Translations under genes and position numbers: made by a program | IMG/VR virus record: IMGVR_UViG_3300046694_000619 | Reading direction: 5' to 3' (one strand) | Origin: a virus | Taxonomy: Duplodnaviria; Caudoviricetes | Length of the DNA: 64,000 nt | The notes under the pieces: model-generated | Told to the model about the DNA's origin: nothing | Seen by the model: the letters and a program-made list of their open reading frames with translations, nothing else | Databases searched by the model: none | Part shown: positions 24,229 through 49,055 of the stretch, one piece after another | Position numbering within the stretch: position 1 is the stretch's first letter | How the letters are laid out: each line of letters starts with the position of its first letter

Positions 24229-26064
24229 ATGGACCTCATTTCAAAACTGCTGGATAGCCAGGAGGCGTCGGCCGCAGCCTTCGGGTTTCTGGCCTACGCC
24301 TTGTTTATTGTGTGGCGCCGCGCGTCGGCGCGCTGGGTGAACTGGTTCCCGCCACTCGCCAAGATTGCTCGCCTCGCGCTCTATGCCTGCGCGCTCGTCG
24401 TCGGCTTCATCGGCTTTCGCGTACTCACCAACGCGGATGCGTCGCCTTACACCTGGCTGCTCGTCGTTGGTGGTGGCTGTACGGGTCCCGTGCTGAACCG
24501 CGTGTCCCGCTTCCTGCGCCCGAAAGAAAAGATTCGCCGCGGCGCGCGCGTGGGCACGCCCGCTGACGTCAACAAGCAGAGTAGCAAGGAGATGCCGTCC
24601 AGCGACTTCAAGGACAGCTTCGAGATGGGCGGCGTGAAAATCCCGCGCTCGGCCGAACCGTATCACTTCTTCGTGGTCGGCTCGACGGGTACGGGTAAGT
24701 CGGTGGCCATCACCAACCTCATGGACGAAATCGAAGCGCGCGGCGACATCGCGCTCGTCGTCGACTCGGGTGGTGAGTTTTCTTCGCGCTACTTCAAGCC
24801 GGGCCGCGACCACATCCTGAATCCGTTCGACGACCGTTGCGCACCCTGGTCGCCTACTGCAGAGCTTGCGGGCCCTTGGGACGCTGAAGCGCTCGCCAAG
24901 TCGATGGTGCCGGACGGTGTCGGAGACTCGAAGGAATGGAACGGCTACGCGCAGACGTTCGTGACGTCCGTGTTGCGTCGGCTCATGGCATTGAACCGCC
25001 TCTCCATCAAGGACCTGCTGTACTACGTCCAGGCCGCGCCCATCGAGGAGCTCACGCCATTGCTGGCCGGCACGTCGGCCGCCGCACAACTGGTTTCGGA
25101 CCGGACTTTCGGGTCCATCCGGACGATTGCGACCAACTATCTGTCGACGTACGCGTATCTGTCGGACAACGACAACCCCTTCTCGGTGGCGAAGTTCATC
25201 CGTGCCGAAAAGCCGGGATTCCTGTTCTTCACGTACCGCGACGACCAGCTCGATTCGCTGCGCAACATGATTGCCTGCGCGCTTGACGTAGCGGCGCGGA
25301 CCATCCTTGCGTTGCCTGCCAATAGTGAGCGACGGGTATGGCTCATCATCGACGAGTTCGCCTCAATCGGCAAAGTGCAGAGCATCGAGGCCGTGGCAAC
25401 CAAGGCACGGAAGATGGGTGGTTGCCTGCTGATTGGTCTGCAGTCGGTTTCGCAGTTGCAGGAACGCTACGGCGAGAAGGGCGCGCAAACCATTCTGTCG
25501 TGCTTGAGCTCCTGGCTCGTGCTGCGCTGCTCCGACGCGGAGACATCTGAGTACGTCTCGAGGTACATCGGCGATACGGAAATCTCCCGCATGACCCGCT
25601 CGGAGTCTACTTCCGACACGGGCGGCGGCTCGGACTCACGCAACGAACAGATTCAGACCCAGCGCGCGGTGATGCCGGTGGAGCTGCAAAAACTTGTCAA
25701 CCTGCACGGCTTCTTCAAGCTCGCCGGCGGCTACCCCATCTGCAACGTCAAGCTGAGCTACCCCAAGAAGCGCGAAGCACGCTCCCAGAAATACGCCGAA
25801 CGCGACTTCATCGCGAAGCCGATGCTCGACCTCATTCCGGCTACCACTCCGGCGAGCCCGGCTGGTGGAAGTGAAGGCGCGGGACAGGGCATGCAACCGC
25901 AGGCCCACGCCGAGGACGCGAACACGTCGGTCGCCGACACGCATCCGACCGCTGAAACCGAACAAGCCACCTTGCGGGTCCGCAAGAGCCCGCTCGAAGA
26001 GGGGCCTGCCGCCCTCGAAGAAATTCTGAATGAACTGGCAGAAGCGTTCGAAAACGATTTTTAA
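24229..26064 (+). CDS. traD: Type IV secretion coupling protein (TraD/TrwB family)
   Basis: N-terminal TM segments, GSTGTGKS, ILNPFD.R...WSP, WLIIDEFAS, LQSVSQL. Confidence 0.85.
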   Translation: MDLISKLLDSQEASAAAFGFLAYALFIVWRRASARWVNWFPPLAKIARLALYACALVVGFIGFRVLTNADASPYTWLLVVGGGCTGPVLNRVSRFLRPKEKIRRGARVGTPADVNKQSSKEMPSSDFKDSFEMGGVKIPRSAEPYHFFVVGSTGTGKSVAITNLMDEIEARGDIALVVDSGGEFSSRYFKPGRDHILNPFDDRCAPWSPTAELAGPWDAEALAKSMVPDGVGDSKEWNGYAQTFVTSVLRRLMALNRLSIKDLLYYVQAAPIEELTPLLAGTSAAAQLVSDRTFGSIRTIATNYLSTYAYLSDNDNPFSVAKFIRAEKPGFLFFTYRDDQLDSLRNMIACALDVAARTILALPANSERRVWLIIDEFASIGKVQSIEAVATKARKMGGCLLIGLQSVSQLQERYGEKGAQTILSCLSSWLVLRCSDAETSEYVSRYIGDTEISRMTRSESTSDTGGGSDSRNEQIQTQRAVMPVELQKLVNLHGFFKLAGGYPICNVKLSYPKKREARSQKYAERDFIAKPMLDLIPATTPASPAGGSEGAGQGMQPQAHAEDANTSVADTHPTAETEQATLRVRKSPLEEGPAALEEILNELAEAFENDF

Positions 26065-28126: not shown

Positions 28127-28202
28127 GCCGGTTTAGCTCAGATGGAAGAGCTACTGTTTTGTAAACAGAGGGTCACGGGTTCGAATCCTGTAGCCGGCAC
28201 CA
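28127..28202 (+). tRNA. tRNA-Thr(TGT)
   Basis: Cloverleaf, loop TT-TGT-AA, CCA. Confidence 0.9.
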
Positions 28203-28213
28203 CCCATCACGCT

Positions 28214-28290
28214 CGGGGCATAGCGCAGTCTGGTAGCGCGTCTGCATGGGGTGCAGAAGGCCGCAGGTTCGAATCCTGCTGTCCCGACCA
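28214..28290 (+). tRNA. tRNA-Pro(GGG)
   Basis: Cloverleaf, loop AT-GGG-GT, CCA. Confidence 0.9.
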
Positions 28291-28300
28291 ACGGTTCAAT

Positions 28301-28376
28301 GCGGGTGTAGCTCAGATGGTAGAGCAGAAGCCTTCCAAGCTTAGTGTCGCGAGTTCGATTCTCGTCGCCCGCTCCA
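28301..28376 (+). tRNA. tRNA-Gly(TCC)
   Basis: Cloverleaf, CT-TCC-AA, U73, CCA. Confidence 0.9.
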
Positions 28377-28507
28377 GTTCCTTGTTGTCGCAGTCATGCG
28401 TTAAATGGCGTCTGCCGGTTGTCCTCTCTCCGGCGCGGTCACTGCGATAAGTGACGTGCTGGCAGGCAAGCTGCAAGCCGTGCTGACGGGAATCAGCGCG
28501 CAACGCT

Positions 28508-28591
28508 GCCCAGGTGGTGAAATGGAAGACACGCTGGTTTCAGAAGCCAGTGGCGAAAGCTGTGAGGGTTCGAGTCCCTCCCTGGGCACCA
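28508..28591 (+). tRNA. tRNA-Leu(CAG)
   Basis: Class II cloverleaf, TT-CAG-AA. Confidence 0.9.
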
Positions 28592-28644
28592 TTAGTACAA
28601 CTTACATGTAGTAGGTCGCAATCACTGCATGTTTTCGCTTCAAC

Positions 28645-28730
28645 GGGGATGTGGCTGAGTGGCCGAAGGCGGCGGACTGTAAATCCGTTCTGTAAAAAGC
28701 GCGATGGTTCGAATCCATCCGTCCCCACCA
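28645..28730 (+). tRNA. tRNA-Tyr(GTA)
   Basis: Class II cloverleaf, CT-GTA-AA. Confidence 0.9.
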
Positions 28731-28745
28731 CGATTTTTTTGCAAT

Positions 28746-28822
28746 GCCTAGGTAGCTCAGCATGGTAGAGCGCCGTCTTGATAAGGCGAGGGTCGCTGGT
28801 TCAAATCCAGCTCTAGGTACCA
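28746..28822 (+). tRNA. tRNA-Ile(GAT)
   Basis: TT-GAT-AA, CCA. Confidence 0.88.
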
Positions 28823-28832
28823 GTTTCACAAT

Positions 28833-28909
28833 TGGCCAGTAGCTCAGTTCGGTAGAGCGCTCCGCTGTTAACGGAAGGGTCACGGGTTCGAAGCCTGTCT
28901 GGCCAGCCA
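28833..28909 (+). tRNA. tRNA-Asn(GTT)
   Basis: CT-GTT-AA, G73, CCA. Confidence 0.88.
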
Positions 28910-28918
28910 ATTTACGAT

Positions 28919-29004
28919 GCACGTGTGGCCGAGCGGTTGAAGGCACTGGGCTGCAAACCCAGCGATGAAACTCCACGCCAGTTCGAATCTGGCCACGTGC
29001 TCCA
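28919..29004 (+). tRNA. tRNA-Cys(GCA) with long variable region
   Basis: CT-GCA-AA, U73, 14-nt variable region. Confidence 0.85.
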
Positions 29005-29031
29005 GTCGCTGTTGCTAGTTGTACGAATAAT

Positions 29032-29117
29032 GCACGCGTAGCCAAGAGGTCGAAGGCACAGGTCCGCAAAACCTACGACGCAAGTCCACGTCAGTTCGAA
29101 TCTGACCGCGTGCTCCA
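29032..29117 (+). tRNA. tRNA-Cys(GCA), C33 variant with variable arm
   Basis: CC-GCA-AA, U73, gac-gcaa-gtc arm. Confidence 0.82.
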
Positions 29118-29140
29118 GTAGTTCCTGAAGTTTGCTTTGC

Positions 29141-29214
29141 TCCGGTGTAGCTCAGTTCGGTAGAGCGCCTGGCTGTTAACCAGGATGTCGGTGGTTCGAA
29201 CCCACTCTCCGGAG
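29141..29214 (+). tRNA. tRNA-Asn(GTT), no encoded CCA
   Basis: CT-GTT-AA, followed by CAA. Confidence 0.85.
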
Positions 29215-29231
29215 CAAAGCAAAGTTTCAAT

Positions 29232-29308
29232 GCTCGGATAGCTCAGTTTGGTAGAGCGCCGGCCCGATAAGCCGTAGGTCGCTGGTTCAAATCCAGCTCC
29301 GAGTACCA
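29232..29308 (+). tRNA. tRNA-Ile(GAT), C33 variant
   Basis: CC-GAT-AA, CCA. Confidence 0.85.
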
Positions 29309-29316
29309 AGTTTTCT

Positions 29317-29392
29317 GCGGGAATAGCTCAGTTGGTAGAGCGCAACCTTGCCAAGGTTGAGGTCGCGAGTTCGAGACTCGTTTCCCGCTCCA
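29317..29392 (+). tRNA. tRNA-Gly(GCC)
   Basis: Canonical proteobacterial-type Gly-GCC sequence. Confidence 0.93.
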
Positions 29393-29403
29393 GGTTTGCC
29401 CTT

Positions 29404-29480
29404 GCAGGGGTAGCTCAGTTGGCTAGAGCATCTGCTTGCCATGCAGAAGGTCGCGAGTTCGAGTCTCGTTCCCTGCTCCA
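29404..29480 (+). tRNA. tRNA-Gly(GCC), divergent copy
   Basis: TT-GCC-AT, U73, CCA. Confidence 0.88.
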
Positions 29481-29488
29481 GTTTCATC

Positions 29489-29586
29489 GCCGAGATAGTC
29501 CGGTCGGTGCCGGTACGAATCCATAAGAGTTGTCGCTTGGTGACCCAGGCGCAGCCCACGCAGTTCGACTCTGCGTCTCGGCTCCA
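29489..29586 (+). ncRNA. Sec/allo-tRNA-like RNA, anticodon unclear
   Basis: GCCGAGA(T)/(G)TCTCGGC acceptor, CGGT D-tetraloop, long variable arm, TTCGACT T-loop, TCCA. Confidence 0.65.
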
Positions 29587-29595
29587 GCTTCATTT

Positions 29596-29672
29596 GCGGT
29601 AGTAGCTCAGCTGGTTAGAGCGCCGGCCTGTCGAGCCGGGGGTCACGGGTTCGAGTCCCGTCTGCCGCGCCA
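29596..29672 (+). tRNA. tRNA-Asp(GTC)
   Basis: CT-GTC-GA, G73, CCA. Confidence 0.9.
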
Positions 29673-29684
29673 GTTTCACCCGAT

Positions 29685-29760
29685 GTTCCGTTGGACTTTT
29701 GGTAAGGTCAGCAGGCTTTCAACCTGCGCAAGCTCGGTTCGAATCCGGCACGGAACTCCA
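29685..29760 (+). tRNA. tRNA-Glu(TTC)
   Basis: CT-TTC-AA, CCA; divergent D arm. Confidence 0.82.
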
Positions 29761-29769
29761 GATTACATT

Positions 29770-29845
29770 GCTCCGTTAACTCAGCGGCCAGAGTGCGTCC
29801 CTGTCCAGGACGAAGCCGAGGGTTCGACTCCCTCACGGGGCGCCA
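29770..29845 (+). tRNA. tRNA-Asp(GTC)
   Basis: CT-GTC-CA, G73, CCA. Confidence 0.88.
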
Positions 29846-29855
29846 GTTTCACAGC

Positions 29856-29931
29856 AGGGGGTAAATCGATTGGAGCAGATACTTGGCTTTGACCCAAGGT
29901 GAGTCGGGTTCGATTCCCACACCCCCTTCCA
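29856..29931 (+). tRNA. tRNA-Gln(TTG), atypical D and T arms
   Basis: CT-TTG-AC, AGGGGGT/ACCCCCT acceptor, CCA. Confidence 0.75.
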
Positions 29932-29943
29932 AAAAATCACAAC

Positions 29944-30019
29944 GTGCGCTTCGTCTAGTGGCCCAGGACCCCGTCTAACAAGGCGGGAGACACAGGTTCG
30001 AATCCTGTAGCGCGCTCCA
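29944..30019 (+). tRNA. Glu-like tRNA body with 6-nt anticodon loop TAACAA
   Basis: TCGTCTAGTGGCCCAGGAC D arm as in tRNA-Glu; CCGTC-TAACAA-GGCGG. Confidence 0.65.
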
Positions 30020-30039
30020 GTAACAACAAAGCACATTGC

Positions 30040-30112
30040 ATGACTGTGGCGCAATTGGCAGCGCAGCGGTCTCCAAAACCGAAGGTTGAGAGTTCGACCC
30101 TCTCCAGTCATG
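30040..30112 (+). tRNA. tRNA-Trp(CCA), no encoded CCA end
   Basis: CT-CCA-AA, followed by CAA. Confidence 0.87.
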
Positions 30113-30131
30113 CAATGTGTTTTCCCCCTGT

Positions 30132-30208
30132 CTGGGCGTAATGTCAGTTGGTAGACGGCCGGCTTTGGAAGCCGGAGGCCGCAGGTTCGAGTCCTGTCGC
30201 CCAGACCA
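30132..30208 (+). tRNA. tRNA-Pro(TGG)
   Basis: TT-TGG-AA, CCA. Confidence 0.87.
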
Positions 30209-30220
30209 AATTTTTTCAAC

Positions 30221-30297
30221 ACTCGGGTCGTCTAGCTGGCCTAGGACACCGCCCTTTCAAGGCGGGCACGCGGGTTCGAATCCCGTCCCGAGTACCA
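30221..30297 (+). tRNA. tRNA-Glu(TTC)
   Basis: CT-TTC-AA, CCA. Confidence 0.9.
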
Positions 30298-30313
30298 AAT
30301 TTCGAGGACAGTC

Positions 30314-30859
30314 ATGTTGACGTGCGTGAATTATAGGCCCGGCTTCGTGGCCAATCCGAATCCGATTTTCGATGCGCTGTGGTCCGAGCTGGACTGGGAG
30401 CGCAGAGGCTCGACGCCCAGGCGTGAGTATTACTGCAACGACGTCGGCGTGCCGTATGTCTATGGCCGCGGCGCCGGCGTACGGGAATACCTGCCCAAGG
30501 CCATGCATCCCGCCCTGGCTGCCCTGAAAGGCGAGACGGAAGCCGCACTGAGCACCAAGTTCGAAGTGGCCTTTCTGAACGGCTACGAGGACGCCCGCGA
30601 CAGCTTGGGCTGGCACGCGGATGACAGCGAGTCGATGGATGACAATCGTCCCATCGCCATCCTGACGCTGGGCGCGGAACGCGAAATCTGGTTCTGCCGC
30701 AACACCGACCGCTCCGACATCACGAAGCTGGTGCTGGGCAACGGCAGCCTGTGCGTCATGGCGCCGGGCATGCAAGATACCCACCTGCACAGAATCCCCA
30801 AGGCGGGGTTCGAGTGCGGCCCGCGTATCAGTATTACATTCAGGGGTTACGTAGCGTAG
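30314..30859 (+). CDS. AlkB-family 2OG-Fe(II) dioxygenase
   Basis: FLNGY.D.RDSLGWHADD, H.IPK, RISITFR. Confidence 0.9.
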   Translation: MLTCVNYRPGFVANPNPIFDALWSELDWERRGSTPRREYYCNDVGVPYVYGRGAGVREYLPKAMHPALAALKGETEAALSTKFEVAFLNGYEDARDSLGWHADDSESMDDNRPIAILTLGAEREIWFCRNTDRSDITKLVLGNGSLCVMAPGMQDTHLHRIPKAGFECGPRISITFRGYVA

Positions 30860-30980
30860 TCCTGAAGGGGTTGCTTCATGCTGCCCTGGCGCCAGGTGTA
30901 GACCATCTGGCGCCGTCTCTACAAGTTGTCGTAGTGCCTATTGCATGGTATATTAAACTCCCCATCATAAGGAGTTTCCC

Positions 30981-31169
30981 ATGAATTACTCGACGGCTCT
31001 GTCGTTTGCTGTTCCGGTCTTGATGCTCATTGCAACCGTGAATCTGGTTGCGTACTGGGCTCGTAACGCAAAGAAGGTAGCTGACGCCCGGCTGCGTGCG
31101 CATTACGATGCGCACCCCGATAAGGCTGAAGCTCGTGCGCTGATGCGCGCAGCAGGCTACAACGTCTGA
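30981..31169 (+). CDS. Small membrane protein
   Basis: AAGGAG RBS, one TM segment. Confidence 0.55.
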   Translation: MNYSTALSFAVPVLMLIATVNLVAYWARNAKKVADARLRAHYDAHPDKAEARALMRAAGYNV

Positions 31170-31227
31170 GCGTAACGCCGGCGTTGTGCTCCGTCCCAGG
31201 TCGGCCAACACCTGGAAAGAACACCTT

Positions 31228-31303
31228 GGGGGTGTAACTCAGTCGGTAGAGTGCCTGACTCTTAATCAGGAAGTCGCGAGTTCGAGCCTCGCCGCCCCCA
31301 CCA
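31228..31303 (+). tRNA. tRNA-Lys(CTT)
   Basis: CT-CTT-AA, CCA. Confidence 0.9.
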
Positions 31304-31311
31304 CGATTACT

Positions 31312-31402
31312 GGAGAGCAAACCTGGCAGGGCTGGGCGCCGATTCGAAATCGGTTGGAGTGGCGAAAGCTGCTTGGGCTTCGAGTGCACCTGCTCTCCGC
31401 CA
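31312..31402 (+). tRNA. tRNA-Ser(CGA), (8/4)-type fold
   Basis: 8-bp acceptor GGAGAGCA/TGCTCTCC, 6-bp D stem, long variable arm, G73. Confidence 0.8.
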
Positions 31403-31408
31403 GACAAT

Positions 31409-31486
31409 AGGACCGTAGCTCAGTTGGACCAGAGCGCCGCGCTACGAACGCGGAGGTCGGGGATTCGAATTCCTCCGGTCCTACCA
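31409..31486 (+). tRNA. tRNA-Arg(ACG)
   Basis: CT-ACG-AA, CCA. Confidence 0.88.
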
Positions 31487-31497
31487 TTTCATTTCTT

Positions 31498-31573
31498 GCC
31501 TCGGTAGCTCAGCTGGTAGAGCACTGCACTGAAGATGCAGGTGTCGCTGGTTCGATTCCAGCTCGAGGCACCA
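31498..31573 (+). tRNA. tRNA-Phe(GAA)
   Basis: CT-GAA-GA, CCA. Confidence 0.9.
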
Positions 31574-31590
31574 CCTTCCGGAGCTTGTCT

Positions 31591-31917
31591 ATGGTCGCGT
31601 ATCCCGTGAACTACACAGACGAGCAGCTTGGAAAAGCCTACGCGGCCGGGATGCTGCGAAAGACCAAGCTTGAGGATGGCCGCTATTACAGAGGCGAATG
31701 TCGAAACGCGAGCGTCGCGCGCTGGTGCGCCGAACTGCAAGCATTCGTGCACTGGACCTTCACGATGGGCGGCTGGCATCTGGACCTCATCCATCATCCC
31801 GACGACGAGAAACGGTATGACGTGTTTCTCGCGTTCGAACGCGTTGAACCTTCCGCAGACGACGTCATCGCTGACGCCGAATACGAAGGGTTCGTCGCGA
31901 TGTATCGCAAACAATGA
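31591..31917 (+). CDS. Hypothetical protein
   Basis: GGAG RBS; GRYYRGECRNASVARW motif. Confidence 0.65.
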   Translation: MVAYPVNYTDEQLGKAYAAGMLRKTKLEDGRYYRGECRNASVARWCAELQAFVHWTFTMGGWHLDLIHHPDDEKRYDVFLAFERVEPSADDVIADAEYEGFVAMYRKQ

Positions 31918-31928
31918 GACTGCAGCGG

Positions 31929-32005
31929 GGTGGCCGTCGCCAAGTGGTTAAGGCCCGCGGCTGTGACCCGCGCATGCATGGGTTCAAATCCCATCGGTCA
32001 CCCCA
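31929..32005 (+). tRNA. tRNA-His(GTG)
   Basis: G-1:C73, CT-GTG-AC, CCA. Confidence 0.9.
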
Positions 32006-32068
32006 CTGCAGTCTCGGACAAAACGTTTTTTCAGTCAGGTTTTTCAATCAACCAACAGGAGCTTCGAT

Positions 32069-32320
32069 ATGCATCGAAAACCGAAGCTGGCGCCGCGTAA
32101 CCCGTTCGTGGCGTCCAGTCTGTTTCGCAAAGCGGGTACGCATGACAAGCCGCACAAGGCCACGCGCCGTGCGGACAAGATGGACTTACGGCGTGTAGCT
32201 CAACTGGCAGAGCAAAGGGCTTTTACCCCTGAGGTTCTGGGTTCAACTCCCAGTGCGCCGACCATCCGAGACATCAAACACATACCGATGTGCAGCAGCA
32301 TTGCGCAGCTATCTGTTTGA
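32069..32320 (+). CDS. Small basic protein whose ORF reads through tRNA-Lys
   Basis: AGGAG RBS; 40 K/R/H-rich codons precede the tRNA 5' end. Confidence 0.55.
   Translation: MHRKPKLAPRNPFVASSLFRKAGTHDKPHKATRRADKMDLRRVAQLAEQRAFTPEVLGSTPSAPTIRDIKHIPMCSSIAQLSV
32189..32264 (+). tRNA. tRNA-Lys(TTT)
   Basis: CT-TTT-AC, CCA. Confidence 0.85.
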
Positions 32321-32348
32321 GGTTTCTCGTGTCGCAAGACACGCGATA

Positions 32349-32484
32349 GGTTTTGAATCGGCGGCGTGGATGGACACGCAGCAATCCGGACAAAGGCGAA
32401 TACGACTAGCCAAGCCGGATTGTGTGGAAGTTGGCCAGTCGTGCTAGCACCAGCGGGTGTCGAAACCTGCACGTTTCAAAACCA
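32349..32484 (+). ncRNA. tRNA-like structured RNA (GTG-GATGGA-CAC class)
   Basis: ggttttgaa/ttcaaaacc closing stem, D-like and T-like hairpins, ends ACCA. Confidence 0.55.
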
Positions 32485-32487
32485 CAT

Positions 32488-32561
32488 GGGGGTGTAGCTC
32501 TAAGGTAGAGCGCCTGCTTTGCAAGCAGAGGGTCCGAATTCGATTTTCGGCGCCTCCACCA
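32488..32561 (+). tRNA. tRNA-Ala(TGC)
   Basis: G3:U70, TT-TGC-AA, CCA. Confidence 0.87.
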
Positions 32562-32569
32562 ATCTTCCT

Positions 32570-32699
32570 GGTGACGTAGCTCAGTCGGTAGAGCGCGGAA
32601 TCCTGGGCCGGCTTCGCGTGGCGCTCCTTCGCTGCGCGGTGACTAATCGGCTCTTGGTTTGTTCCGAGGTCGGATGTTCGAACCATCCCGTCATCGCCA
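32570..32699 (+). ncRNA. tRNA-like RNA with ~60-nt hairpin replacing the anticodon loop
   Basis: Canonical acceptor, D and T arms, GCCA end. Confidence 0.75.
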
Positions 32700-32711
32700 A
32701 ACACGTTGTAT

Positions 32712-32802
32712 GGAGAGTAAACCTGGCAGGGCCGGGCGCCGGTTGGAAGCCGGTCGGAGCGGCGAAAGCTGCTTGGGCTTCGAGTGCACCTACTCTCCGC
32801 CA
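32712..32802 (+). tRNA. tRNA-Ser(GGA), (8/4)-type fold
   Basis: GGAGAGTA/TACTCTCC, TT-GGA-AG. Confidence 0.8.
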
Positions 32803-32811
32803 TTCATTTTT

Positions 32812-32888
32812 GCTTCGGTAGCTCAGTCTGGTAGAGCGCTGCGTTGAAGGCGCAGGCGTCGTTGGTTCAATTCCAACCCGAAGCACCA
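32812..32888 (+). tRNA. tRNA-Phe(GAA)
   Basis: TT-GAA-GG, CCA. Confidence 0.87.
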
Positions 32889-32909
32889 CATACAGGAGGT
32901 TTTCTTCTC

Positions 32910-33107
32910 ATGGGAACGGTAAGCCTTCACGGCCTGCGTGTGCTACGCCTTGAAAGGGCGTTGCGTGCGAGAGGCGTAAAAGATGTGAAGCTGGTGGTCA
33001 ACCCATCCGCTCACGTATCAAGAGACGCACTCACAGAGAGCGTTTGCCGGGTGCTCGAGGCCTACCTTGCGGGGAAGGTCACGGCGCTACCGCGCGGCAG
33101 CTTCTGA
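32910..33107 (+). CDS. Small hypothetical protein
   Basis: AGGAGG RBS. Confidence 0.6.
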   Translation: MGTVSLHGLRVLRLERALRARGVKDVKLVVNPSAHVSRDALTESVCRVLEAYLAGKVTALPRGSF

Positions 33108-33314
33108 GTGCGTTTCTTGAGGTCATAAACCGGGGGCAAGATAGGGCCATCGCGCGAACCCGTCACGCGTCGAGTAGCTGGCGTAAGCAGCTAATACTTC
33201 TTCGAAACTCCTTCGGGGTGTGCTCCGCTCATGCGAGTCTGTGCACTCCAAAGCAGTTTTGATTGTCCGGCCGTCTTCTCTGGCAGCCAGGGCTGTGCGC
33301 TTGCGCACGACCAT

Positions 33315-33391
33315 CTCCGTGTAGCTCAGTCTGATAGAGCGCCTCGTTCGGGACGAGGAGGTCGCAGGTTTGAACCCTGTCTCGGAGACCA
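33315..33391 (+). tRNA. tRNA-Pro(CGG)
   Basis: TT-CGG-GA, CCA. Confidence 0.85.
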
Positions 33392-33460
33392 TTTTTGAGG
33401 GAAGCGTCGCGTGTCGACGCATGCGGCGCCCCAGCGCGTAATCTGGGGCAACGATTTCTT

Positions 33461-33550
33461 GGAGGGTGAACCAGACAGGGTTTGGGCTCGCCTGCTAAGC
33501 GAGGCGTTTGGCGAAAGCTGAATTCGGTTCGATACCGACTCCCTCCTCCA
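33461..33550 (+). tRNA. tRNA-Ser(GCT), (8/4)-type fold
   Basis: GGAGGGTG/CTCCCTCC (one mismatch), 4-bp T stem TCGG/CCGA, CT-GCT-AA. Confidence 0.8.
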
Positions 33551-33559
33551 GGTTTCAAT

Positions 33560-33634
33560 GCTCGTGTAGCGCAGTGGTAGCGCACCGCTTTCACACAGCG
33601 GGGGTCGCTGGTTCGATGCCAGCCTCGAGCACCA
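33560..33634 (+). tRNA. tRNA-Val(CAC)
   Basis: TT-CAC-AC, CCA. Confidence 0.88.
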
Positions 33635-33642
33635 GTTCAATT

Positions 33643-34383
33643 TCACCTCAGGAGCGACATGACGGATTTGTCAGCCCAGAGTTGCGCACACAAGGCTGCG
33701 CGGTCGGGGCGGACCGTGGAGTCCGACGGTGCCGCAGATTCGATTCGCTCCCGCAGCGCTGCCATTCGTTCGCGCACCAGTGCTTCGTCGGCAGGAACGT
33801 AGCGACCCTCAGCATCCGCCAGGGGCAGCAGGGCAATGGGCTCATCACCAAACAGGTCGGCAGCGATGTCCGCGACAAAGCGCTCGTTGCCGTCGTCAAC
33901 CTCGACCCAATAGTGAGCGTGGCAGTTGCCCGCAGCATCGAAAAAGCCGGTGACTTCGCCGTCACCGGCACGAATGCAGGAGCTCATCTTCGGCAGGGAT
34001 TTCTTGACCTGCAGGTCGGCGAGATAGGCGGCGAACGCACAGCTCCCAGCGACCTGACCCAAGAATCCAGATTCGCACGCGCGGTCGAGAGCGCCGATGG
34101 TCTTTGTCAGCGCCGCGTGCAACGCTATCGAACTCGCCTGGCGCCCTTCGCGAATGGTCGCGCCCGCGGCATCAATCTGATTGCCAATCTCGCGGGAAAC
34201 CTCTCGCGCGTCGAACGAATCCTTGGCAGCGAATTTCACCTTGACTGTCAAATCCTCGCCTACCGGGTACCAGCGCTCTTGAAATCGGATACGCGCGCCT
34301 GCATAGAGCGGGGCGCGGACGTGTGCGGTAAAAAGCCACTCTCCGTCAACGCGTGTGGTTGTCGAGGTTACGAAGTACGACAT
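33643..34383 (-). CDS. Hypothetical protein (possible Cys-His-Asp papain-like fold)
   Basis: AGGAG RBS; GSC...HYWVE...ADIAADLFG. Confidence 0.6.
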   Translation of the reverse strand: MSYFVTSTTTRVDGEWLFTAHVRAPLYAGARIRFQERWYPVGEDLTVKVKFAAKDSFDAREVSREIGNQIDAAGATIREGRQASSIALHAALTKTIGALDRACESGFLGQVAGSCAFAAYLADLQVKKSLPKMSSCIRAGDGEVTGFFDAAGNCHAHYWVEVDDGNERFVADIAADLFGDEPIALLPLADAEGRYVPADEALVRERMAALRERIESAAPSDSTVRPDRAALCAQLWADKSVMSLLR

Positions 34384-34456
34384 GATTTCTCCTGAAACAT
34401 GTCCGTAGTATACAAAGTAATTTGCGTAGCGACAACTACGCAGAGAGTTGATGAAT

Positions 34457-34532
34457 GGGTACCTAGCTCAGTTGGAAGAGCATCGCCTCGACACGGCGAA
34501 GGTCGGCGGTTCGAACCCGTCGGTACCTACCA
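34457..34532 (+). tRNA. tRNA-Val(GAC), C33 variant
   Basis: TC-GAC-AC, CCA. Confidence 0.87.
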
Positions 34533-34540
34533 GTTTTGAT

Positions 34541-34619
34541 AGGGGAGTGGCGCCGAGCGGTCTAAGGCACCGGGTTCTGACCCCGGGTTTCGCAGGTTCG
34601 AATCCTGCCTCCTCTTCCA
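34541..34619 (+). tRNA. tRNA-Gln(CTG)
   Basis: TT-CTG-AC, CCA. Confidence 0.85.
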
Positions 34620-34626
34620 GCTTTAC

Positions 34627-34705
34627 AGGCCCGTAGCTCAGGTGGATTGAGAGCGCGACACTACGAATGTCGAGGTCGGGGGTTCAAGTCCCTCCGGGTC
34701 TACCA
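34627..34705 (+). tRNA. tRNA-Arg(ACG)
   Basis: CT-ACG-AA, CCA. Confidence 0.88.
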
Positions 34706-34769
34706 TTAAAGCATAGTTGCCATTAAGCATTTTTAATGATATAATGCAAAGCATCAGTAGTGCACACCT

Positions 34770-34856
34770 GCCCAGGTGGCGGAATTGGTAGACGCGCAGC
34801 GTTGAGGTCGCTGTGTCCGAAAGGACGTGGGGGTTCGAGTCCCCCCTTGGGCACCA
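34770..34856 (+). tRNA. tRNA-Leu(GAG)
   Basis: Class II, TT-GAG-GT. Confidence 0.92.
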
Positions 34857-34872
34857 TTTTTTGAGGTATGTC

Positions 34873-35073
34873 ATGGCCAACGATGAAGTCGTCGTCGAGC
34901 TGAACTTCAATGCGGCACCGCCGCCGAAGTGCAAGCGATGCGGCCGCGACAAGGGAAGTCACAAAGCAGTGACGCTGCATTGTCCGATTGGACGCGGCAA
35001 TTTCCCTTCTTTCGCGATGGCCAAGCTATACGAGCCCCGCACGCCGCGCTTAAAGCGGTCAAAAGCGGGCTGA
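34873..35073 (+). CDS. Small Cys/His (zinc-finger-like) protein
   Basis: GAGG RBS; CKRCG...H....HCP. Confidence 0.55.
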   Translation: MANDEVVVELNFNAAPPPKCKRCGRDKGSHKAVTLHCPIGRGNFPSFAMAKLYEPRTPRLKRSKAG

Positions 35074-35084
35074 AGTAGTACAAC

Positions 35085-35169
35085 GCTCCGAATGGCGGAA
35101 TTGGTTAGACGCCTTGGTCGTACCAGGGACCGCAAGGTCGTGTGGGTTCGAATCCCGCTTCGGGCACCA
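35085..35169 (+). ncRNA. tRNA-Leu-like RNA with shrunken anticodon loop
   Basis: Leu-type D arm, variable arm and A73-CCA; anticodon arm CTTGG-TCGTA-CCAGG. Confidence 0.7.
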
Positions 35170-35336
35170 GATTCATCTCTTTGTATGGCACTTGCGGCTA
35201 TACCTGGGGATGATGTCGAGCCTTCTGGCTGTTAGACCTGCGCGACATAAAAGGAACTGCAGGCGAGTCATCCGCACTTTCAGTAGGAGTCGGCGGCAGG
35301 GGGAGTGCCTGCATCCTTTCAACAAGGTTTTTGAAC

Positions 35337-35612
35337 ATGCGCTCGTTGGTTTTCGCTTTTTTGGTTTCGTGCAGCCTCCCGCTCGCCGTCCTTGGATGCA
35401 GCAACGGGAATGCGGTCACGTCCCAGCACATTGCTTTGGCATCGGACAAGTGCGCGGCAAACGGTGGCCTGAAGCAGGTCGAGCGGGCCGACGCCACTCG
35501 CATGAGCGAGAGCTGCGGCTACAAGTGCAGTCGCTACACCGGTCAGATAGAGTACGAGGCCCAGTTCTCTTGCAAGAACGGCGCGCACTTCGACCTGACC
35601 TGGCAAGAATAA
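35337..35612 (+). CDS. Putative lipoprotein
   Basis: Lipobox-like VLGC, Cys-rich. Confidence 0.6.
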   Translation: MRSLVFAFLVSCSLPLAVLGCSNGNAVTSQHIALASDKCAANGGLKQVERADATRMSESCGYKCSRYTGQIEYEAQFSCKNGAHFDLTWQE

Positions 35613-35620
35613 GGAGCAGC

Positions 35621-35854
35621 ATGAGCGAGCGCAAGCAGGAGTGGCAGGCGTACCGCGTGCGCCGGTTCTTTCGGACGCGGCACTATGTGGCGTGTTGGAT
35701 AAACGGTTATGAGTTCCTGTATGCCCATGCCGGCAAGCCTCGCTACTTCGCAGAAGCGGCTGACGCAATAAAGTTTGCTGAGTATCTGAGTCTGCCTGAA
35801 GCGGAGCGGCAGCTCATTGACTATGCGGAAGCCTACGGCGCGTTCTACGCGTAA
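35621..35854 (+). CDS. Hypothetical protein
   Basis: AAGGAG RBS. Confidence 0.6.
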   Translation: MSERKQEWQAYRVRRFFRTRHYVACWINGYEFLYAHAGKPRYFAEAADAIKFAEYLSLPEAERQLIDYAEAYGAFYA

Positions 35855-35894
35855 GAGCGTTAAGCCTTCGACCGCAAGCGCACTAAAGATTCAA

Positions 35895-35980
35895 GCCCTT
35901 TTGGTGGAATGGAAGACACAGGAGATTCAAAATTTCCCGCCTTAAAAAGCGTGCCGGTTCGAGTCCGGCATAGGGCACCA
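35895..35980 (+). tRNA. tRNA-Leu(CAA)
   Basis: Class II, TT-CAA-AA. Confidence 0.88.
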
Positions 35981-35990
35981 AGTTTAATAT

Positions 35991-36068
35991 CGGGGATTAA
36001 TGTCAGTCCGGTAGACGGCCTGCTCCGGAAGCAGGAGGCCGCAGGTTCAAATCCTGCATCCCCGACCA
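35991..36068 (+). tRNA. tRNA-Pro(CGG), C33 variant
   Basis: TC-CGG-AA, CCA. Confidence 0.83.
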
Positions 36069-36227
36069 AATTTCGACCGCAGACTACGCGGTATCTCGCC
36101 GTCGTCCTGGGAAATCGCATCCGCGAAAGTACAATCGGCAGGGCTAGGAGCAGCGATGAAATAGCCGCCATCGCGCTCGACGCAAGAGGCCGGGCTGGTG
36201 GAATGCCAGTCGCGAATGCAACACGAT

Positions 36228-36303
36228 GCGTCCGTAACTCAGTGGAAAGAGTGCCACCCTCCGAAGGTGGAAGCCGGCCGTTCGATTCGGTCCGGACGCG
36301 CCA
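36228..36303 (+). tRNA. tRNA-Arg(CCG)
   Basis: CT-CCG-AA, CCA. Confidence 0.87.
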
Positions 36304-36551
36304 GAACTCTGGCTCAGCCAAGATTTCGCTGGGCTGGTACGAGCACCAACCTCTCGGCCCCGGTCATCTATCGGGAAAGTACTGGGAGGTCGTCTGCCCC
36401 GACGTGAGTTAAGTGGGCATGGCGCTCCATAGGAGCCCGCTGGGAAGCCATACCGCAGGTCGCCCCTGTGGCCAAAATCCCGGCACACAAGAGCTGTACG
36501 ACAGAAGGGGCCGTTCGATTCATCGGACGGCCCCTTTTTGCATTCCGCGCT

Positions 36552-36639
36552 GCCTGCGTGGTGAAATTGGTAGACACACCTGGCTTAAGACCAGACGCTG
36601 CTAGTCAGCATAAGGGTTCGAGGCCCTTCGCAGGCACCA
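36552..36639 (+). tRNA. tRNA-Leu(TAA)
   Basis: Class II, CT-TAA-GA. Confidence 0.88.
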
Positions 36640-42259: not shown

Positions 42260-42335
42260 GGGTCCTTAGCTCAGTTGGTAGAGCGGTTGCCTTACAAGCA
42301 ATAGGTCGGCGGTTCGACCCCGTCAGGACCCACCA
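42260..42335 (+). tRNA. tRNA-Val(TAC)
   Basis: CT-TAC-AA, CCA. Confidence 0.92.
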
Positions 42336-42339
42336 CCTG

Positions 42340-42490
42340 AATCATGAGTTCTGCTGTCTGACGATGAAAGCGAGGCGGTGGCGCCGCTTGCCTCAGTAGT
42401 CGGCAGAAGTAACGCCAAGTTGACCGGACAGGGTTTCGCGACCAGACGCCGGCAAGCAACGGAGCTTCGTGGACGGCAGAACTCATGATT
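42340..42490 (+). ncRNA. Unknown structured RNA closed by a 19-bp stem
   Basis: aatcatgagttctgctgtc / gacggcagaactcatgatt. Confidence 0.55.
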
Positions 42491-42737
42491 TAAAGGTTTT
42501 TTCGCGAAAAGAAAGGGGATTCCGGTGGTCCTACCGCGGTGGGGACTGTAAAAGCCGGGACGCGTCCGGGGTAAAACTCCATACGCCGCAACAGTTTTGT
42601 TTTTGGAGCTCGGTTTTGCCAAAAGACCGCAGTTACTCTGACGATGCGCTGAAAGGTGCTATAGAAAAGGCTGTGTCTTGGACTCAAGTTTCAACGCTTT
42701 TGGGTCGCTTGTCGGATTTTCAGAAGTTGTAGTTCAT

Positions 42738-42856
42738 GGTCATCTAGCTTAATGGCAGAGCGCCGCAGTAGGGCTGCACCCCGTTCGATTCGGGTGAGAG
42801 AATGGTTCGCGTAAGTCCGCATGCGGAGGAGTGGTTCGAAACCAAAATGACCTCCA
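42738..42856 (+). ncRNA. tRNA-like RNA with ~54-nt insert in place of the anticodon loop
   Basis: D arm GCTT-AATGGCA-GAGC, CCGCA/TGCGG stem, TTCGAAA T loop, TCCA. Confidence 0.65.
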
Positions 42857-42881
42857 GGTTTTATGCGGTACAGCAGTATTC

Positions 42882-42957
42882 GGGGGCTTAGCTCAGTTGG
42901 GAGAGCATCTGCTTTGCAAGCAGAGGGTCATCGGTTCGAACCCGATAGCCTCCACCA
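42882..42957 (+). tRNA. tRNA-Ala(TGC)
   Basis: G3:U70, TT-TGC-AA. Confidence 0.92.
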
Positions 42958-42962
42958 GCTTT

Positions 42963-43171
42963 ATCAATTCTGGAAATCGGTAGGAGCAGAGCCTTGTGGA
43001 TGGGCGGCCGGCCGACTGACGGGCACGAACGCGCGAGCGAGGCGCGTCACGGTCCAGACGAGCGGGCAATGCCTTCTCGTCGCATGCGTGCAGTGCGGGC
43101 GACGGTAAAACGGAGTGGCGGGTAGGTTTTCGCAACCGATGTGTCCACACCGGCCGGTTTCCAGAATTGAT
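42963..43171 (+). ncRNA. Unknown structured RNA (AGGAGCAGA class, copy 1)
   Basis: 19-bp closing stem; motifs shared with 49383-49567. Confidence 0.55.
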
Positions 43172-43430
43172 GAAGTCCTGTAGTCAGCGTCGGTGTGGAT
43201 GGACACACTAAGCACGGTGCAGAAACATTAAACCTGTTCTCCCGTAGGGGTCACCGCGACCGTCGAACTCCCAAATGCGAAAGCCTTCGGGAGTCGAGCC
43301 GGAAAGGGACAGGCTGCGAAGGTGCCGAAGGAAAACGGAGTGGGCAATGCGGACGCGCAACCCACCGCAGGCCACTGGCAGTGTGTGGCTGACCCGGAAT
43401 CAAGCCCGGGGCGCTGTCTACAGGGCTTCA
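43172..43430 (+). ncRNA. tRNA-like structured RNA (GTG-GATGGA-CAC class, long copy)
   Basis: gaagtcctgtag/ctacagggcttc closing stem, D-like and T-like hairpins. Confidence 0.55.
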
Positions 43431-43815
43431 TCAACAACGAGTAGTGCCCGCAAGGTACTACCATCTGCGCAGCGTCAGCGGGCTGAGTTTCCCGCACGAT
43501 TCATGGTGACGTTTGCAGGGGGGCGAGGTTCGATGTCCTCAAGGCGACCCGGTTCGAGTCCGGTGCCAGTGGCTGAACCTGCAATGCTGGCGATTGTCCA
43601 GCACGCTGCGCAGATGGGTGAAAAGCGAAAACGACACGGAAGCCTGGAGCCGACCGGAAACGGCGCCAGGTGGAAGGACTGGAAGTAGCTGGTTCAGGCT
43701 ATCCGAACACGGGGACTCGACGCGAGTACGCCAACTGGGTCAATGAAAACAGTACCGGACCCCCGTGATGCCGCTGGTTCAACCTCAGCCTCATCGTCCA
43801 ACATTCAATCCTGAT

Positions 43816-44082
43816 ATGACCAAGTACGTGTTGCTCTACACAGGCACGCAAGGCGCGAAGGTCCCTGCTGTAGACATCAAAGCCATCAAGGCGTTGCCCG
43901 GTATCGTCGTCTCGAAAGAGATTCCGATGAAATCCGCGTACATGATGCACGTCGAAGGCCCCGTCACGGTTAAACGCGCCGTCAACAAGATGGCTTGCTG
44001 GGTCGCATCAGAAGTGCACACGTACGAAAGCCCGGAGCCACGTCCGGGGTTTCAGGTATCGGCCGGCAAGCGCACGAAGTAA
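43816..44082 (+). CDS. Hypothetical protein
   Basis: ORF with plausible codon usage between RNA genes. Confidence 0.5.
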   Translation: MTKYVLLYTGTQGAKVPAVDIKAIKALPGIVVSKEIPMKSAYMMHVEGPVTVKRAVNKMACWVASEVHTYESPEPRPGFQVSAGKRTK

Positions 44083-44105
44083 CGCTCGGCCGCAGTATCA
44101 ACTTT

Positions 44106-44196
44106 GGAAGACGAACCCGCCAGGGGTGGGACCTGATTTGAAATCAGTGGGAGTGGCGAAAGCTGCTTGGGCTTCGAGTGCACCCGTCTTCCGCCA
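44106..44196 (+). tRNA. tRNA-Ser(TGA), (8/4)-type fold
   Basis: GGAAGACG/CGTCTTCC, TT-TGA-AA. Confidence 0.8.
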
Positions 44197-44229
44197 AACA
44201 ACATCACTCTTCCTCGACTTCCCGCGTAC

Positions 44230-45108
44230 ATGGCAAGTGCCCTTCGTTCCCTGAGCTTCAAAGTCTTCATCGCTGACCTCGTTAGCTCGGAGGATGATGG
44301 ACCAGGTCTGCCATATCGCCTCCTCGAAGCACGTCCGCTCGTCGACGGTGAGCCTCTGCTGAAGGGCTATGTCTTCGACATTGCCCCGCTTATCGGCTAT
44401 GGGCTGCGCGACGTCGACACGGACCTCTACACGTGCGGCTGCGGGGTCGCCGGTTGCGCGGGAATCCATGACCACGTCCAGCTGCGCGTTGACCGCGGCT
44501 TGATGACCTGGACGTTTCCAGAAGACCCGTTCCGCAAGGGGTTCGCAGCAGAACTTTTCCCGGCCGAGGCACCGCTCACCCTGCGCTTCGCCAAGAAACA
44601 GTACCGGCAAGCGCTCAAAAGCGTGGAAGCCGAGCTGCTCGCCCTGGCTGCCGATGGCGGCGCGCCGGTGGTGCTGGCGGCTGGTTCGGCCTATCCGGAC
44701 CTGAATACGCCGCTGAAGAAGGTGCTGAAATCGGTTCGCAAACACGCGAACCGCTGGCTTGCGAGCGTCGCGCGCGAGAAGCAACTCTTTGGCGAACTGC
44801 TCAACCAGGAGGTGCTGGTGCGCTTCCCGAACGGAGCGCTGCGCATTATTCCCGTCACCAACTTCGCCTATCACCTCGCATACGAAGAAGAGGAGCGGAC
44901 AGGCGTCGCAAGAGACGACATTCTCGCCGATACGTACCTGCCCGAATGGAAGCGGGACACGGGGAGCCTCATAGCCGCAGTGCGTGCCACCAACTGGGAC
45001 CTCATCCGCGAGGTGATGTTCCGCACGTCCCGCGGCGGCGATGACATCGAGCCAGCGCGCGAGCAGTGGGCTGCGGCCGTGTTCACGCTCGAGCAGTCAC
45101 TCTCGTAA
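44230..45108 (+). CDS. Hypothetical protein with TCGCGVAGC motif
   Basis: Long ORF, Cys cluster. Confidence 0.65.
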   Translation: MASALRSLSFKVFIADLVSSEDDGPGLPYRLLEARPLVDGEPLLKGYVFDIAPLIGYGLRDVDTDLYTCGCGVAGCAGIHDHVQLRVDRGLMTWTFPEDPFRKGFAAELFPAEAPLTLRFAKKQYRQALKSVEAELLALAADGGAPVVLAAGSAYPDLNTPLKKVLKSVRKHANRWLASVAREKQLFGELLNQEVLVRFPNGALRIIPVTNFAYHLAYEEEERTGVARDDILADTYLPEWKRDTGSLIAAVRATNWDLIREVMFRTSRGGDDIEPAREQWAAAVFTLEQSLS

Positions 45109-45129
45109 CTCACCCCCGGAGCGCACCCC

Positions 45130-45645
45130 ATGAAAGTCTGGTTCACACGACCCTCGACCTGGGACCTCTATGTACGCGGCGTCGAGCGCTGCGAACTCTG
45201 GCTGCAAAAGCCGGAGTTCGACCATTCGCCACGCGGCAAAGAGCGCGACTCCATCCTGCCGAATCTCCCGATTGGTTGGCGCGCGCTGGACCCGGAATAC
45301 GGTGACATCACCGGGCAGGTACGCGTCACCGTTGGTGAGGCTATCCCGACAGGGCAACACGACGCAGTCTTGCATGCGCTCTGGGACGCCTTGTGTCGTT
45401 CCGTCGATGGCCGCGGCGCTCTTGAGGGCGCGCCGGCGCCACAGCGCTGGGAGCAGGGCCTGGATGATGGCTCGTTCAGCGAGGCGGATGAGCGGACTCT
45501 CGCGAGCTTCCTCTTCGAATCTGACGTGTCGCCGGAGTTATGGTTCAAGGCTGCGTTGCTCAATGGTCTCGAATACCAGACCGCGGCGGGACGCTGGGCT
45601 CAGAAATTCTTCCCGCTCGACGATGAACTGGGCGTCACTTCCTGA
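45130..45645 (+). CDS. Hypothetical protein
   Basis: GGAG RBS, operon arrangement. Confidence 0.6.
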   Translation: MKVWFTRPSTWDLYVRGVERCELWLQKPEFDHSPRGKERDSILPNLPIGWRALDPEYGDITGQVRVTVGEAIPTGQHDAVLHALWDALCRSVDGRGALEGAPAPQRWEQGLDDGSFSEADERTLASFLFESDVSPELWFKAALLNGLEYQTAAGRWAQKFFPLDDELGVTS

Positions 45646-45661
45646 AAGAGAACAATACAAA

Positions 45662-46207: not shown

Positions 46208-46208
46208 A

Positions 46209-46784: not shown

Positions 46785-46794
46785 GGAGCGCCCG

Positions 46795-47409: not shown

Positions 47410-47486
47410 CAAACCAGAAAGTGTTGTAAAAGGCCGACGCTTTCAACCTCGAGGCAGTTAACTTTAAAAAAGTTTGCGTCGAGGCG

Positions 47487-47514
47487 TTGACACGCGCGCT
47501 GTTGGTGCTATACT
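47487..47514 (+). promoter_or_regulatory. Strong sigma70-like promoter of the GOLLD/tRNA block
   Basis: TTGACA-N16-TATACT; same TGGTGCTATACT as at 27529. Confidence 0.75.
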
Positions 47515-47593
47515 GCCAACACTGACTGATTCAAACAGTCTTCGACAGGTAGCAATACTGTCTCGCTCTTAAACAATTTGGCTCTCAATTTTT

Positions 47594-47762
47594 CTCTCTC
47601 TTCTGGGGGAATCACGGCTAGGTAGGTAGGACCTACGATGACGTGCGCTGGCAGGTGGAAAGCATGGGCCTTGGCCCCTCTGCAACCCGAAGTTGTCCGG
47701 AAACACAGGCCGGACTGAGCAAGCATACCGACTTGCAACTGTGGTTCCCCGAGAAGAGAGAG
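47594..47762 (+). ncRNA. Unknown structured RNA closed by a long stem
   Basis: ctctctcttctgggggaatcacgg / ctgtggttccccgagaagagagag. Confidence 0.5.
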
Positions 47763-49041: not shown

Positions 49042-49055
49042 AAGTATTTTAGAAT

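Follow-up and report, generated by a model that had tools for sequence, protein, structure and literature searches.

Within the 64,000-nucleotide stretch of DNA analysed here (the window), a small open reading frame lies between two tRNA genes and ends directly at the second, tRNA-Lys(UUU) (Table 1). The sequence-only reading had described an AGGAG ribosome-binding site, an ATG at 32069 and exactly 40 codons before the 5' end of tRNA-Lys(TTT) at 32189, with the stop codon past the tRNA. All of this is borne out: the ribosome-binding site and start codon are present in the sequence, ARAGORN and Rfam agree on the tRNA, and the list of open reading frames places the first in-frame stop 54 nt beyond tRNA-Lys. 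There are 0 nt between codon 40 and the tRNA 5' end, the RNase P site, and the full frame including the tRNA and the tail behind it (32069..32320) encodes 83 aa. Six of the 40 codons of the peptide itself are for Lys.

Table 1. Features of the window and of related loci; positions are those of the window unless a locus is named.
Feature	Position	Strand	Basis or remark
GyrA/ParC-like topoisomerase subunit	8725-11163		
GyrB/ParE-like topoisomerase subunit	14001-16088		
TrwB/TraD-type T4SS coupling protein	24229-26064	+	TrwB, E 1e-109; directly upstream of the tRNA array
tRNA array regions	28127-36639 and 42260-53411	+	ARAGORN
AlkB-like 2OG oxygenase	30314-30859		one of several small protein genes between array tRNAs
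tRNA-His(GUG)	31930..32005	+	ARAGORN; Rfam 56.8 bits
Shine-Dalgarno AGGAG	32057..32061	+	7 nt 5' of the ATG; read from the sequence
40-codon CDS, basic peptide	32069..32188	+	168 homologues, alignment of 133 cores, codon statistics, AF2 model
tRNA-Lys(UUU), CCA encoded	32189..32264	+	ARAGORN; Rfam 60.4 bits
Non-conserved read-through tail	32265..32320	+	ends at TGA 32318-32320; ORF list
TrwB/TraD-type coupling protein in L001	L001 1120-2949		directly upstream of a related array, as in the window
Toxin/defence cargo upstream of the small gene	L008 2763-5987; L041 4676-6373; L023, L044, L071, L102, L119		
DUF7230 loci examined	L136-L143 (genomes G302, G035, G218, G134 and others)		ORFs of ~40-70 aa

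The flanking tRNAs are part of a large array, as 52 tRNA genes were called in the window by ARAGORN, all on one strand. The ordinary genes of this array are closed by a stop codon of their own and separated by a spacer from the tRNA that follows; the gene at 31585-31917, for example, ends 12 nt before tRNA-His. In syntenic relatives of the locus (L001-L003 and L025), tRNA-His is upstream of the small ORF too. A perfect 10-bp inverted repeat, pairing positions 31916-31925 with 32006-32015 (GAGACTGCAG / CTGCAGTCTC), extends the acceptor stem of tRNA-His, and its arm at 31916-31925 overlaps the stop of an upstream 110-aa ORF, for which relatives were sought and none found. Judging from the pairing, the repeat could form a helix for precursor processing, which would also fix where the small-ORF transcript begins.

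Several other tRNA calls in the array are unusual. In two of them the anticodon is called as 4 nt (29944-30019, 'aaca'; 35086-35169, 'acca'), and a tRNA-Tyr(AUA) call at 29489-29586 is 98 nt long. On the plus strand at 32570-32699, the anticodon loop of a tRNA-Thr(GGU) is interrupted by a 52-nt insert at position 32/33, which is non-canonical; this gene was called by ARAGORN with introns allowed and missed by the default ARAGORN scan.

The tRNA array appears to be carried by a conjugative element, since a TrwB-type coupling protein is encoded directly upstream of it both in the window and in L001, a close relative of the window array whose 405-kb contig encodes TraT and TrwB beside it. The carrier is thus not clearly a phage; it resembles a conjugative megaplasmid or an ICE. 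A reading of the window as jumbo phage DNA was dropped, as the weak PHROG 'terminase' match is the TrwB coupling ATPase. A BLAST search of the locus against phages and plasmids gave matches to the tRNAs alone.

The small ORF and its relatives

Open frames arise readily in DNA of this kind: random ORFs are long at 59% GC, and many spurious ORFs cross tRNAs in the window. By composition, the small ORF has GC contents of 0.60/0.475/0.725 at codon positions 1/2/3, against 0.63/0.475/0.747 in the long genes of the window, and a codon log-likelihood of +12.3, the sole positive value among the six frames and one that 11% of stop-free wrong-frame windows of 40 codons also reach. Composition is therefore only suggestive of a gene, although this ORF, out of all those entering one of the 52 tRNAs, is alone in combining an ATG, a Shine-Dalgarno sequence and a clearly positive score.

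Comparison with other proteins is decisive. Searched exhaustively with HMMER, 1.84 billion representative proteins yielded 168 homologues at E<=1e-3, which marks the empty result of a word-index homologue search as a false negative. Among codons not fixed by the DNA search pattern, entropy at positions 1/2/3 is 1.19/1.06/1.67, and the greater variability of the third position is a coding signature. Where a start was called, the start codon is ATG in 92 of 102 family members, and an SD-like motif is present in 74 of the 102. Given the 168 homologues and the coding-type substitution pattern, window positions 32069-32188 are a genuine gene. The probability that the ORF is a chance frame in a GC-rich spacer is negligible, this being already refuted by homologues with coding-type substitutions across Betaproteobacteria, plasmids and viral contigs.

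In nearly all of the 168 relatives, residues 1-40 of the window peptide pair with the N-terminal residues 1-40 of proteins of 44-183 aa, and in every one conservation stops at residue 38-41, near the residue 40 at which the sequence-only reading had proposed to look for its end. The core motif of the family is PRNPFVA..FRKAG.H.K..KA.RR..K., and when 133 cores are aligned, G23 and H25 never vary, while conservation reaches 90% or more at V14, A22, K27, K30, R33 and R34. R10-N11-P12 is invariant as well, in part because sequences were chosen by that motif. Past residue ~40 the tails are mutually unrelated, and many are recognisably translated tRNA, with the anticodon loop of tRNA-Lys(UUU), CTTTTAA or CTTTTAC, read in all three frames.

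The family has no match in Pfam or NCBIfam (for the window peptide, at E<=10), the family profile has none among PDB sequences at E<=10, and the members are named only 'hypothetical protein' by their sources. In the AlphaFold2 model (mean pLDDT 84), residues 13-18 and 29-39 are predicted to form two short helices, and the peptide is not a globular domain. It has a basic N-terminus, a short hydrophobic patch and a K/R-rich C-terminal half, with a net charge of about +8, and Lys is frequent across the family.

Loci were searched for in viral contigs and species-representative genomes with a degenerate IUPAC DNA pattern of the core, which was found in 29 viral contigs and in 87 contigs of the genomes. 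The carrier genomes are almost all Betaproteobacteria (Thiomonas, Derxia, Curvibacter, Rhodoferax, Thiobacillus, Gallionella, Rhodocyclaceae and Burkholderia), and the range of the family takes in Burkholderiales, Rhodocyclales and Nitrosomonadales-type lineages together with their plasmids and phages. Carriers include Thiobacillus denitrificans DSM 12475 with an array copy (L085), Niveibacterium and Rhodocyclaceae with the hairpin type, and Curvibacter delicatus with an ordinary stop. By these sequence comparisons, the small ORF belongs to a previously unannotated family of ~40-residue basic peptides.

Gene ends at tRNAs, hairpins and ordinary stops

The gene ends were surveyed by script at 128 loci; 112 of these differ in their core DNA. 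The sequence-only reading had proposed checking whether homologues consistently run into tRNAs or terminators, and had held that ordinary stops near codon 40 would refute its proposal. The answer to the check is largely positive: ~60% of the 112 loci fit, the ORF entering a tRNA without a preceding stop at 39 and a hairpin at ~30, whereas ~30% have an ordinary stop close behind the core. Since those genes exist, an obligatory non-stop design is ruled out, and the sequence-only reading is partly supported. A few further loci are truncated at a contig end or border on degenerate tRNA-like sequence. At one of the latter (L012, 1486-1545), the small ORF enters a tRNA-like 5' half (GGGCATAGCTCAGTTGGTAGAGCAG...) without a complete ARAGORN call, as it does in some viral contigs; this half may be a degenerate or rearranged tRNA.

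In 33 of the 39 tRNA-linked loci the tRNA is tRNA-Lys(UUU); a few copies precede tRNA-Phe, tRNA-Leu or tRNA-Lys(CUU) instead. At 35 loci the tRNA 5' end is 28-33 codons past the conserved R10, or 37-45 codons from the start, with junction frames 0/1/2 represented 22, 12 and 1 times. The 11 tRNA-linked loci that were scanned whole all lie among other tRNA genes (2-30 per locus), with at least nine in all but two, and those two are cut at a contig end. The upstream tRNA differs from array to array (His, Arg, Gln, Gly, Phe, Asp or Ala) while the junction between the ORF and tRNA-Lys is kept. In one clear tRNA-Lys-linked copy only (L026) does the ORF have its own stop before the tRNA. In many viral copies the frame stops 9 codons inside the tRNA, giving products of 46-47 aa, the same size as free-standing members.

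At ~30 free-standing loci, the ORF enters a very strong hairpin just after the core, starting at R10+28 to R10+43, with 22-35 pairs and a folding energy of -29 to -54 kcal/mol. The stop then lies in the loop or the 3' arm, or 7-46 codons past the hairpin at non-conserved positions. The hairpins fall into at least four subtypes with unrelated sequences. In a 17-member subtype, with tails of the form ...SPESWHK...SAM..., pairing in the 23-pair helix is 95.4% and drops to 35-43% if the partner strand is slid, and compensatory changes occur at eight pairs; its covariation score was reached by none of 500 shuffles. Stems of at least 20 pairs are found at the gene tail in 22 of 23 loci, compared with only 4 elsewhere in 182 kb.

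Other identities were considered for these structures. For two subtypes, a reading as intrinsic terminators within the ORF was dropped after folding, as the T-runs are the 5' arms of long hairpins. Dispersed repeats of the attC or REP type were ruled out, the hairpins being the longest in nearly every locus and gene-specific. They also lack the core sites of attC, and the genes of L008 do not share one orientation.

About 30 of the 112 loci, of the Curvibacter, Thiomonas and Derxia types together with the phage-like L004, have an ordinary stop 6-11 codons past the core and no conserved structure. A conserved hairpin across the stop was sought in the short Curvibacter and Thiomonas types and none was found, and in L004 the stop is followed by a normal terminator. 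The Curvibacter gene lies within an operon, between ogt and a ferritin-like gene, and the neighbours of chromosomal copies are heterogeneous. Hairpin-type members are often found directly downstream of variable cargo: RelE with an HTH protein, a ParE/RelE-family protein with an RHH protein, Fic/Doc toxins, and AbiLi/AbiLii (an AriA-like ATPase plus a RloB-like protein). Such neighbours could point to a role in translation stress or defence, or could reflect mere residence in mobile islands.

Under one explanation of these gene ends, the peptide is an ordinary small basic protein, for example one that binds RNA, ribosomes or DNA, made from the unprocessed transcript with an irrelevant tail. The missing stop would then be incidental, the 3' overlap arising from the compactness of the arrays or from the tRNA or hairpin stabilising the mRNA at its 3' end. 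Genes with plain stops make up ~30% of the family, L004 having a terminator besides; spacing in the arrays is very tight, chromosomal neighbours vary, and many viral copies end within the tRNA at the length of free-standing members. All of this suits an ordinary protein. What such a protein does not lead one to expect is that the other protein genes of the window array keep a stop and spacer before the next tRNA, that 39 loci lack a stop before the tRNA while a single clear tRNA-Lys-linked copy has one, that stops beyond the tRNA or hairpin range from R10+33 to R10+141 and are not conserved, and that four unrelated hairpin types all lie inside the ORF and none after a stop. The frame that offers the handiest stop, with U8-A9-G10 of the tRNA read as TAG, is also the rarest (1/35); this depletion was set aside as a signal, being not significant given ~9 independent junction types. 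On balance, an ordinary protein is an improbable explanation, though one that carries some weight.

The preference for one tRNA raises a second alternative. PrrC and PARIS are host nucleases that cut tRNA-Lys, and the peptide with its tRNA-Lys(UUU) might form a module in which a Lys-rich leader senses how much tRNA-Lys is available and adjusts how the downstream tRNA matures, or in which a counter-defence peptide travels with a replacement tRNA-Lys against such nucleases. The 33 of 39 tRNA-linked copies that precede tRNA-Lys(UUU) do so although the arrays are otherwise reshuffled, which is in keeping with a module of this kind, as are the Lys content of the window peptide and of the family, and the position of hairpin-type members directly behind genes for RelE, ParE or Doc toxins and AbiL-like (AriA-related ATPase) defence proteins. 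However, the conserved residues are not lysines alone, and the invariant R10-N11-P12, G23 and H25 imply a binding function of the peptide's own; two thirds of the loci have no nearby tRNA, a few copies precede tRNA-Phe, tRNA-Leu or tRNA-Lys(CUU), and location in defence islands may only reflect mobility. Such a module seems quite unlikely.

A possible link to ribosome rescue

The mRNAs of arfA and brfA are truncated before the stop codon, and the factor is made only if trans-translation fails (PMC3989581, PMC6881298, PMC11633108). The layout seen here is of the arfA/brfA type because a tRNA or a long hairpin comes between the core and any usable stop, the tails are not conserved and the stop positions vary. 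The family is very probably real and arfA-like in layout.

Under this scenario, a spacer mRNA of 183 nt, with a Shine-Dalgarno sequence, 40 codons and no stop, would remain once RNase P has cut at the 5' end of tRNA-Lys; 3' processing of tRNA-His would set the 5' end of that transcript. In the chromosomal relatives, the equivalent position is occupied by a hairpin of 20-27 bp, of a kind that RNase III cuts. A ribosome reaching the end of the stop-less mRNA would stall. While tmRNA-SmpB is active, the peptide would be tagged and degraded; once trans-translation is saturated, untagged peptide would accumulate, so that its job would be tied to the failure of trans-translation. The tail past tRNA-Lys would be translated only from the unprocessed precursor. 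By analogy with known factors, the basic C-terminal half of the peptide might bind the empty mRNA channel and help to release stalled ribosomes.

The steps of this proposal differ in how likely they appear. Cleavage of the transcripts by RNase P or RNase III, as the position of the tRNAs and hairpins suggests, and production of the peptide from non-stop mRNA under tmRNA control are somewhat favoured. That the peptide rescues ribosomes is a more tentative hypothesis, drawn from analogy, as its build fits a factor that binds the mRNA channel. For the reading as a whole, that of a stop-less arfA/brfA-like gene whose peptide is tied to the failure of trans-translation, the case for and against appears evenly balanced.

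Several observations speak against a rescue function. The non-stop design is not universal, given the plain stops in ~30% of loci and the stop and terminator of L004. The near-exclusivity of tRNA-Lys(UUU) is unexplained, since any tRNA would give an RNase P cut, and the unprocessed precursor could yield protein without a non-stop step. There is also no gap for the peptide to fill in the five carrier genomes tested, since all five have ArfB. Nor does the family have a sequence relationship to ArfA. In favour of the proposal, on the other hand, the ArfA family PF03889 was found in none of the five, while the control E. coli genome matched, and ArfA is rare in Betaproteobacteria, being present in 37 of 1000 genomes (PMC11633108). 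In one sample of 400 genomes, the peptide family occurs in 13, ArfA in 6 and DUF7230, an uncharacterised peptide family treated below, in 8. None of them co-occur, and fewer than 0.3 overlaps are expected by chance, so the complementarity of the family with ArfA or ArfB is uninformative.

The rescue reading also has a bolder form. The peptides would be a new rescue-factor family gated by RNase P removal of the stop and, in the arrays and phages, hard-wired to tRNA-Lys(UUU) as a two-part counter-measure, supplying a replacement tRNA-Lys and a rescue peptide when defences or toxins deplete tRNA-Lys or cut mRNAs. Depletion or cutting would make ribosomes pile up and saturate tmRNA, and the rescue peptide would be made only then. 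We consider this version unlikely.

Among known rescue factors, a close parallel in layout is ArfA (YhdL, PF03889), an alternative, RF2-dependent rescue factor found in Gamma- and some Betaproteobacteria. Like the family, ArfA is small and basic, its C-terminal half is rich in K/R and its conservation ends about 40-50 residues in. In both, the ORF enters a 3'-end-forming element, such as the long hairpin that is an RNase III site in E. coli arfA, which would leave the mature mRNA without a stop, and a non-conserved tail lies beyond. A processing or termination element thus lies between core and stop in the window and in ~60% of loci, as for ArfA, and is missing from the ~30% with ordinary stops. 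The family differs from ArfA in that a large subset has a tRNA, and hence RNase P, in place of the hairpin. The sequences also differ: KGKGSY, invariant in an alignment of six genomic ArfA sequences, is absent from the family alignment, whose invariant residues are RNP, G and H. PF03889 matched none of the 133 family members at E<=1, and hhalign of the family against the six ArfA sequences gave a probability of 0.2% over 9 aligned columns, with ..FR. only in common. On this sequence evidence, the family is not ArfA.

In Bacillus subtilis, BrfA is likewise small and RF2-dependent, and its mRNA is truncated before the stop and repressed by trans-translation (PMC6881298, PMC11633108). BrfA is from a different phylum, and no homologue of it or sequence similarity to it was found in any search of this analysis. 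ArfT of Francisella tularensis has 40 residues and an ordinary stop, and the architecture of the peptides described here matches the description of ArfA and ArfT (PMC6299226). Compared by size and charge only, ArfT is like the family in being basic and previously unannotated, and its ordinary stop recalls the Curvibacter and Thiomonas-type members, whereas ArfT is restricted to Francisella and has a KKGGSTNKK motif. A further parallel is the tRNA punctuation of animal mitochondria, where an excised tRNA abutting a coding sequence makes an mRNA 3' end without a complete stop. Polyadenylation completes the stop there, while bacteria have no such repair, and the product would be a true non-stop mRNA. 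A tRNA-Lys RNase P site acting as an mRNA-truncating element was not found described in the literature searched, and tRNA processing would be a new way of removing the stop in an arfA/brfA-type layout.

To our knowledge, only a handful of alternative rescue systems have been described, namely ArfA, ArfB, ArfT, BrfA, RqcH and PrfH. A family with the arfA layout across Betaproteobacteria, plasmids and phages would be a candidate for a new rescue factor that can be tested directly. If the proposal is true, tRNA excision can act as a programmed remover of stop codons in bacteria, and mobile tRNA arrays carry more than tRNAs, which bears on how plasmids and phages cope with defences that target translation. 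Even if the peptide is no rescue factor, the repeated loss of the stop through three or four RNA elements needs an explanation that involves trans-translation.

The same layout occurs in DUF7230 (PF23876), an uncharacterised family of ~42-aa peptides from phages and Gammaproteobacteria that emerged as a lead from the ESM Atlas (feature similarity 0.82). It shares with the present family a basic N-terminus with an RNPxA motif and a stop-removing layout, as in 4 of 8 members examined (L136, L137, L138 and L141) an in-ORF hairpin of 15-25 bp or an intrinsic terminator follows the core. The C-terminal halves differ, with FRDKTKY.RK.KH in DUF7230 and FRKAG.H.K..KA.RR in the peptide family. PF23876 matched none of the 133 family members at E<=1, and a comparison of DUF7230 with ArfA was not significant. 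Profile alignment of the family with DUF7230 by hhalign gave a probability of 28% (E 6e-4) over 34 collinear columns, and DUF7230 may be a distant sister family.
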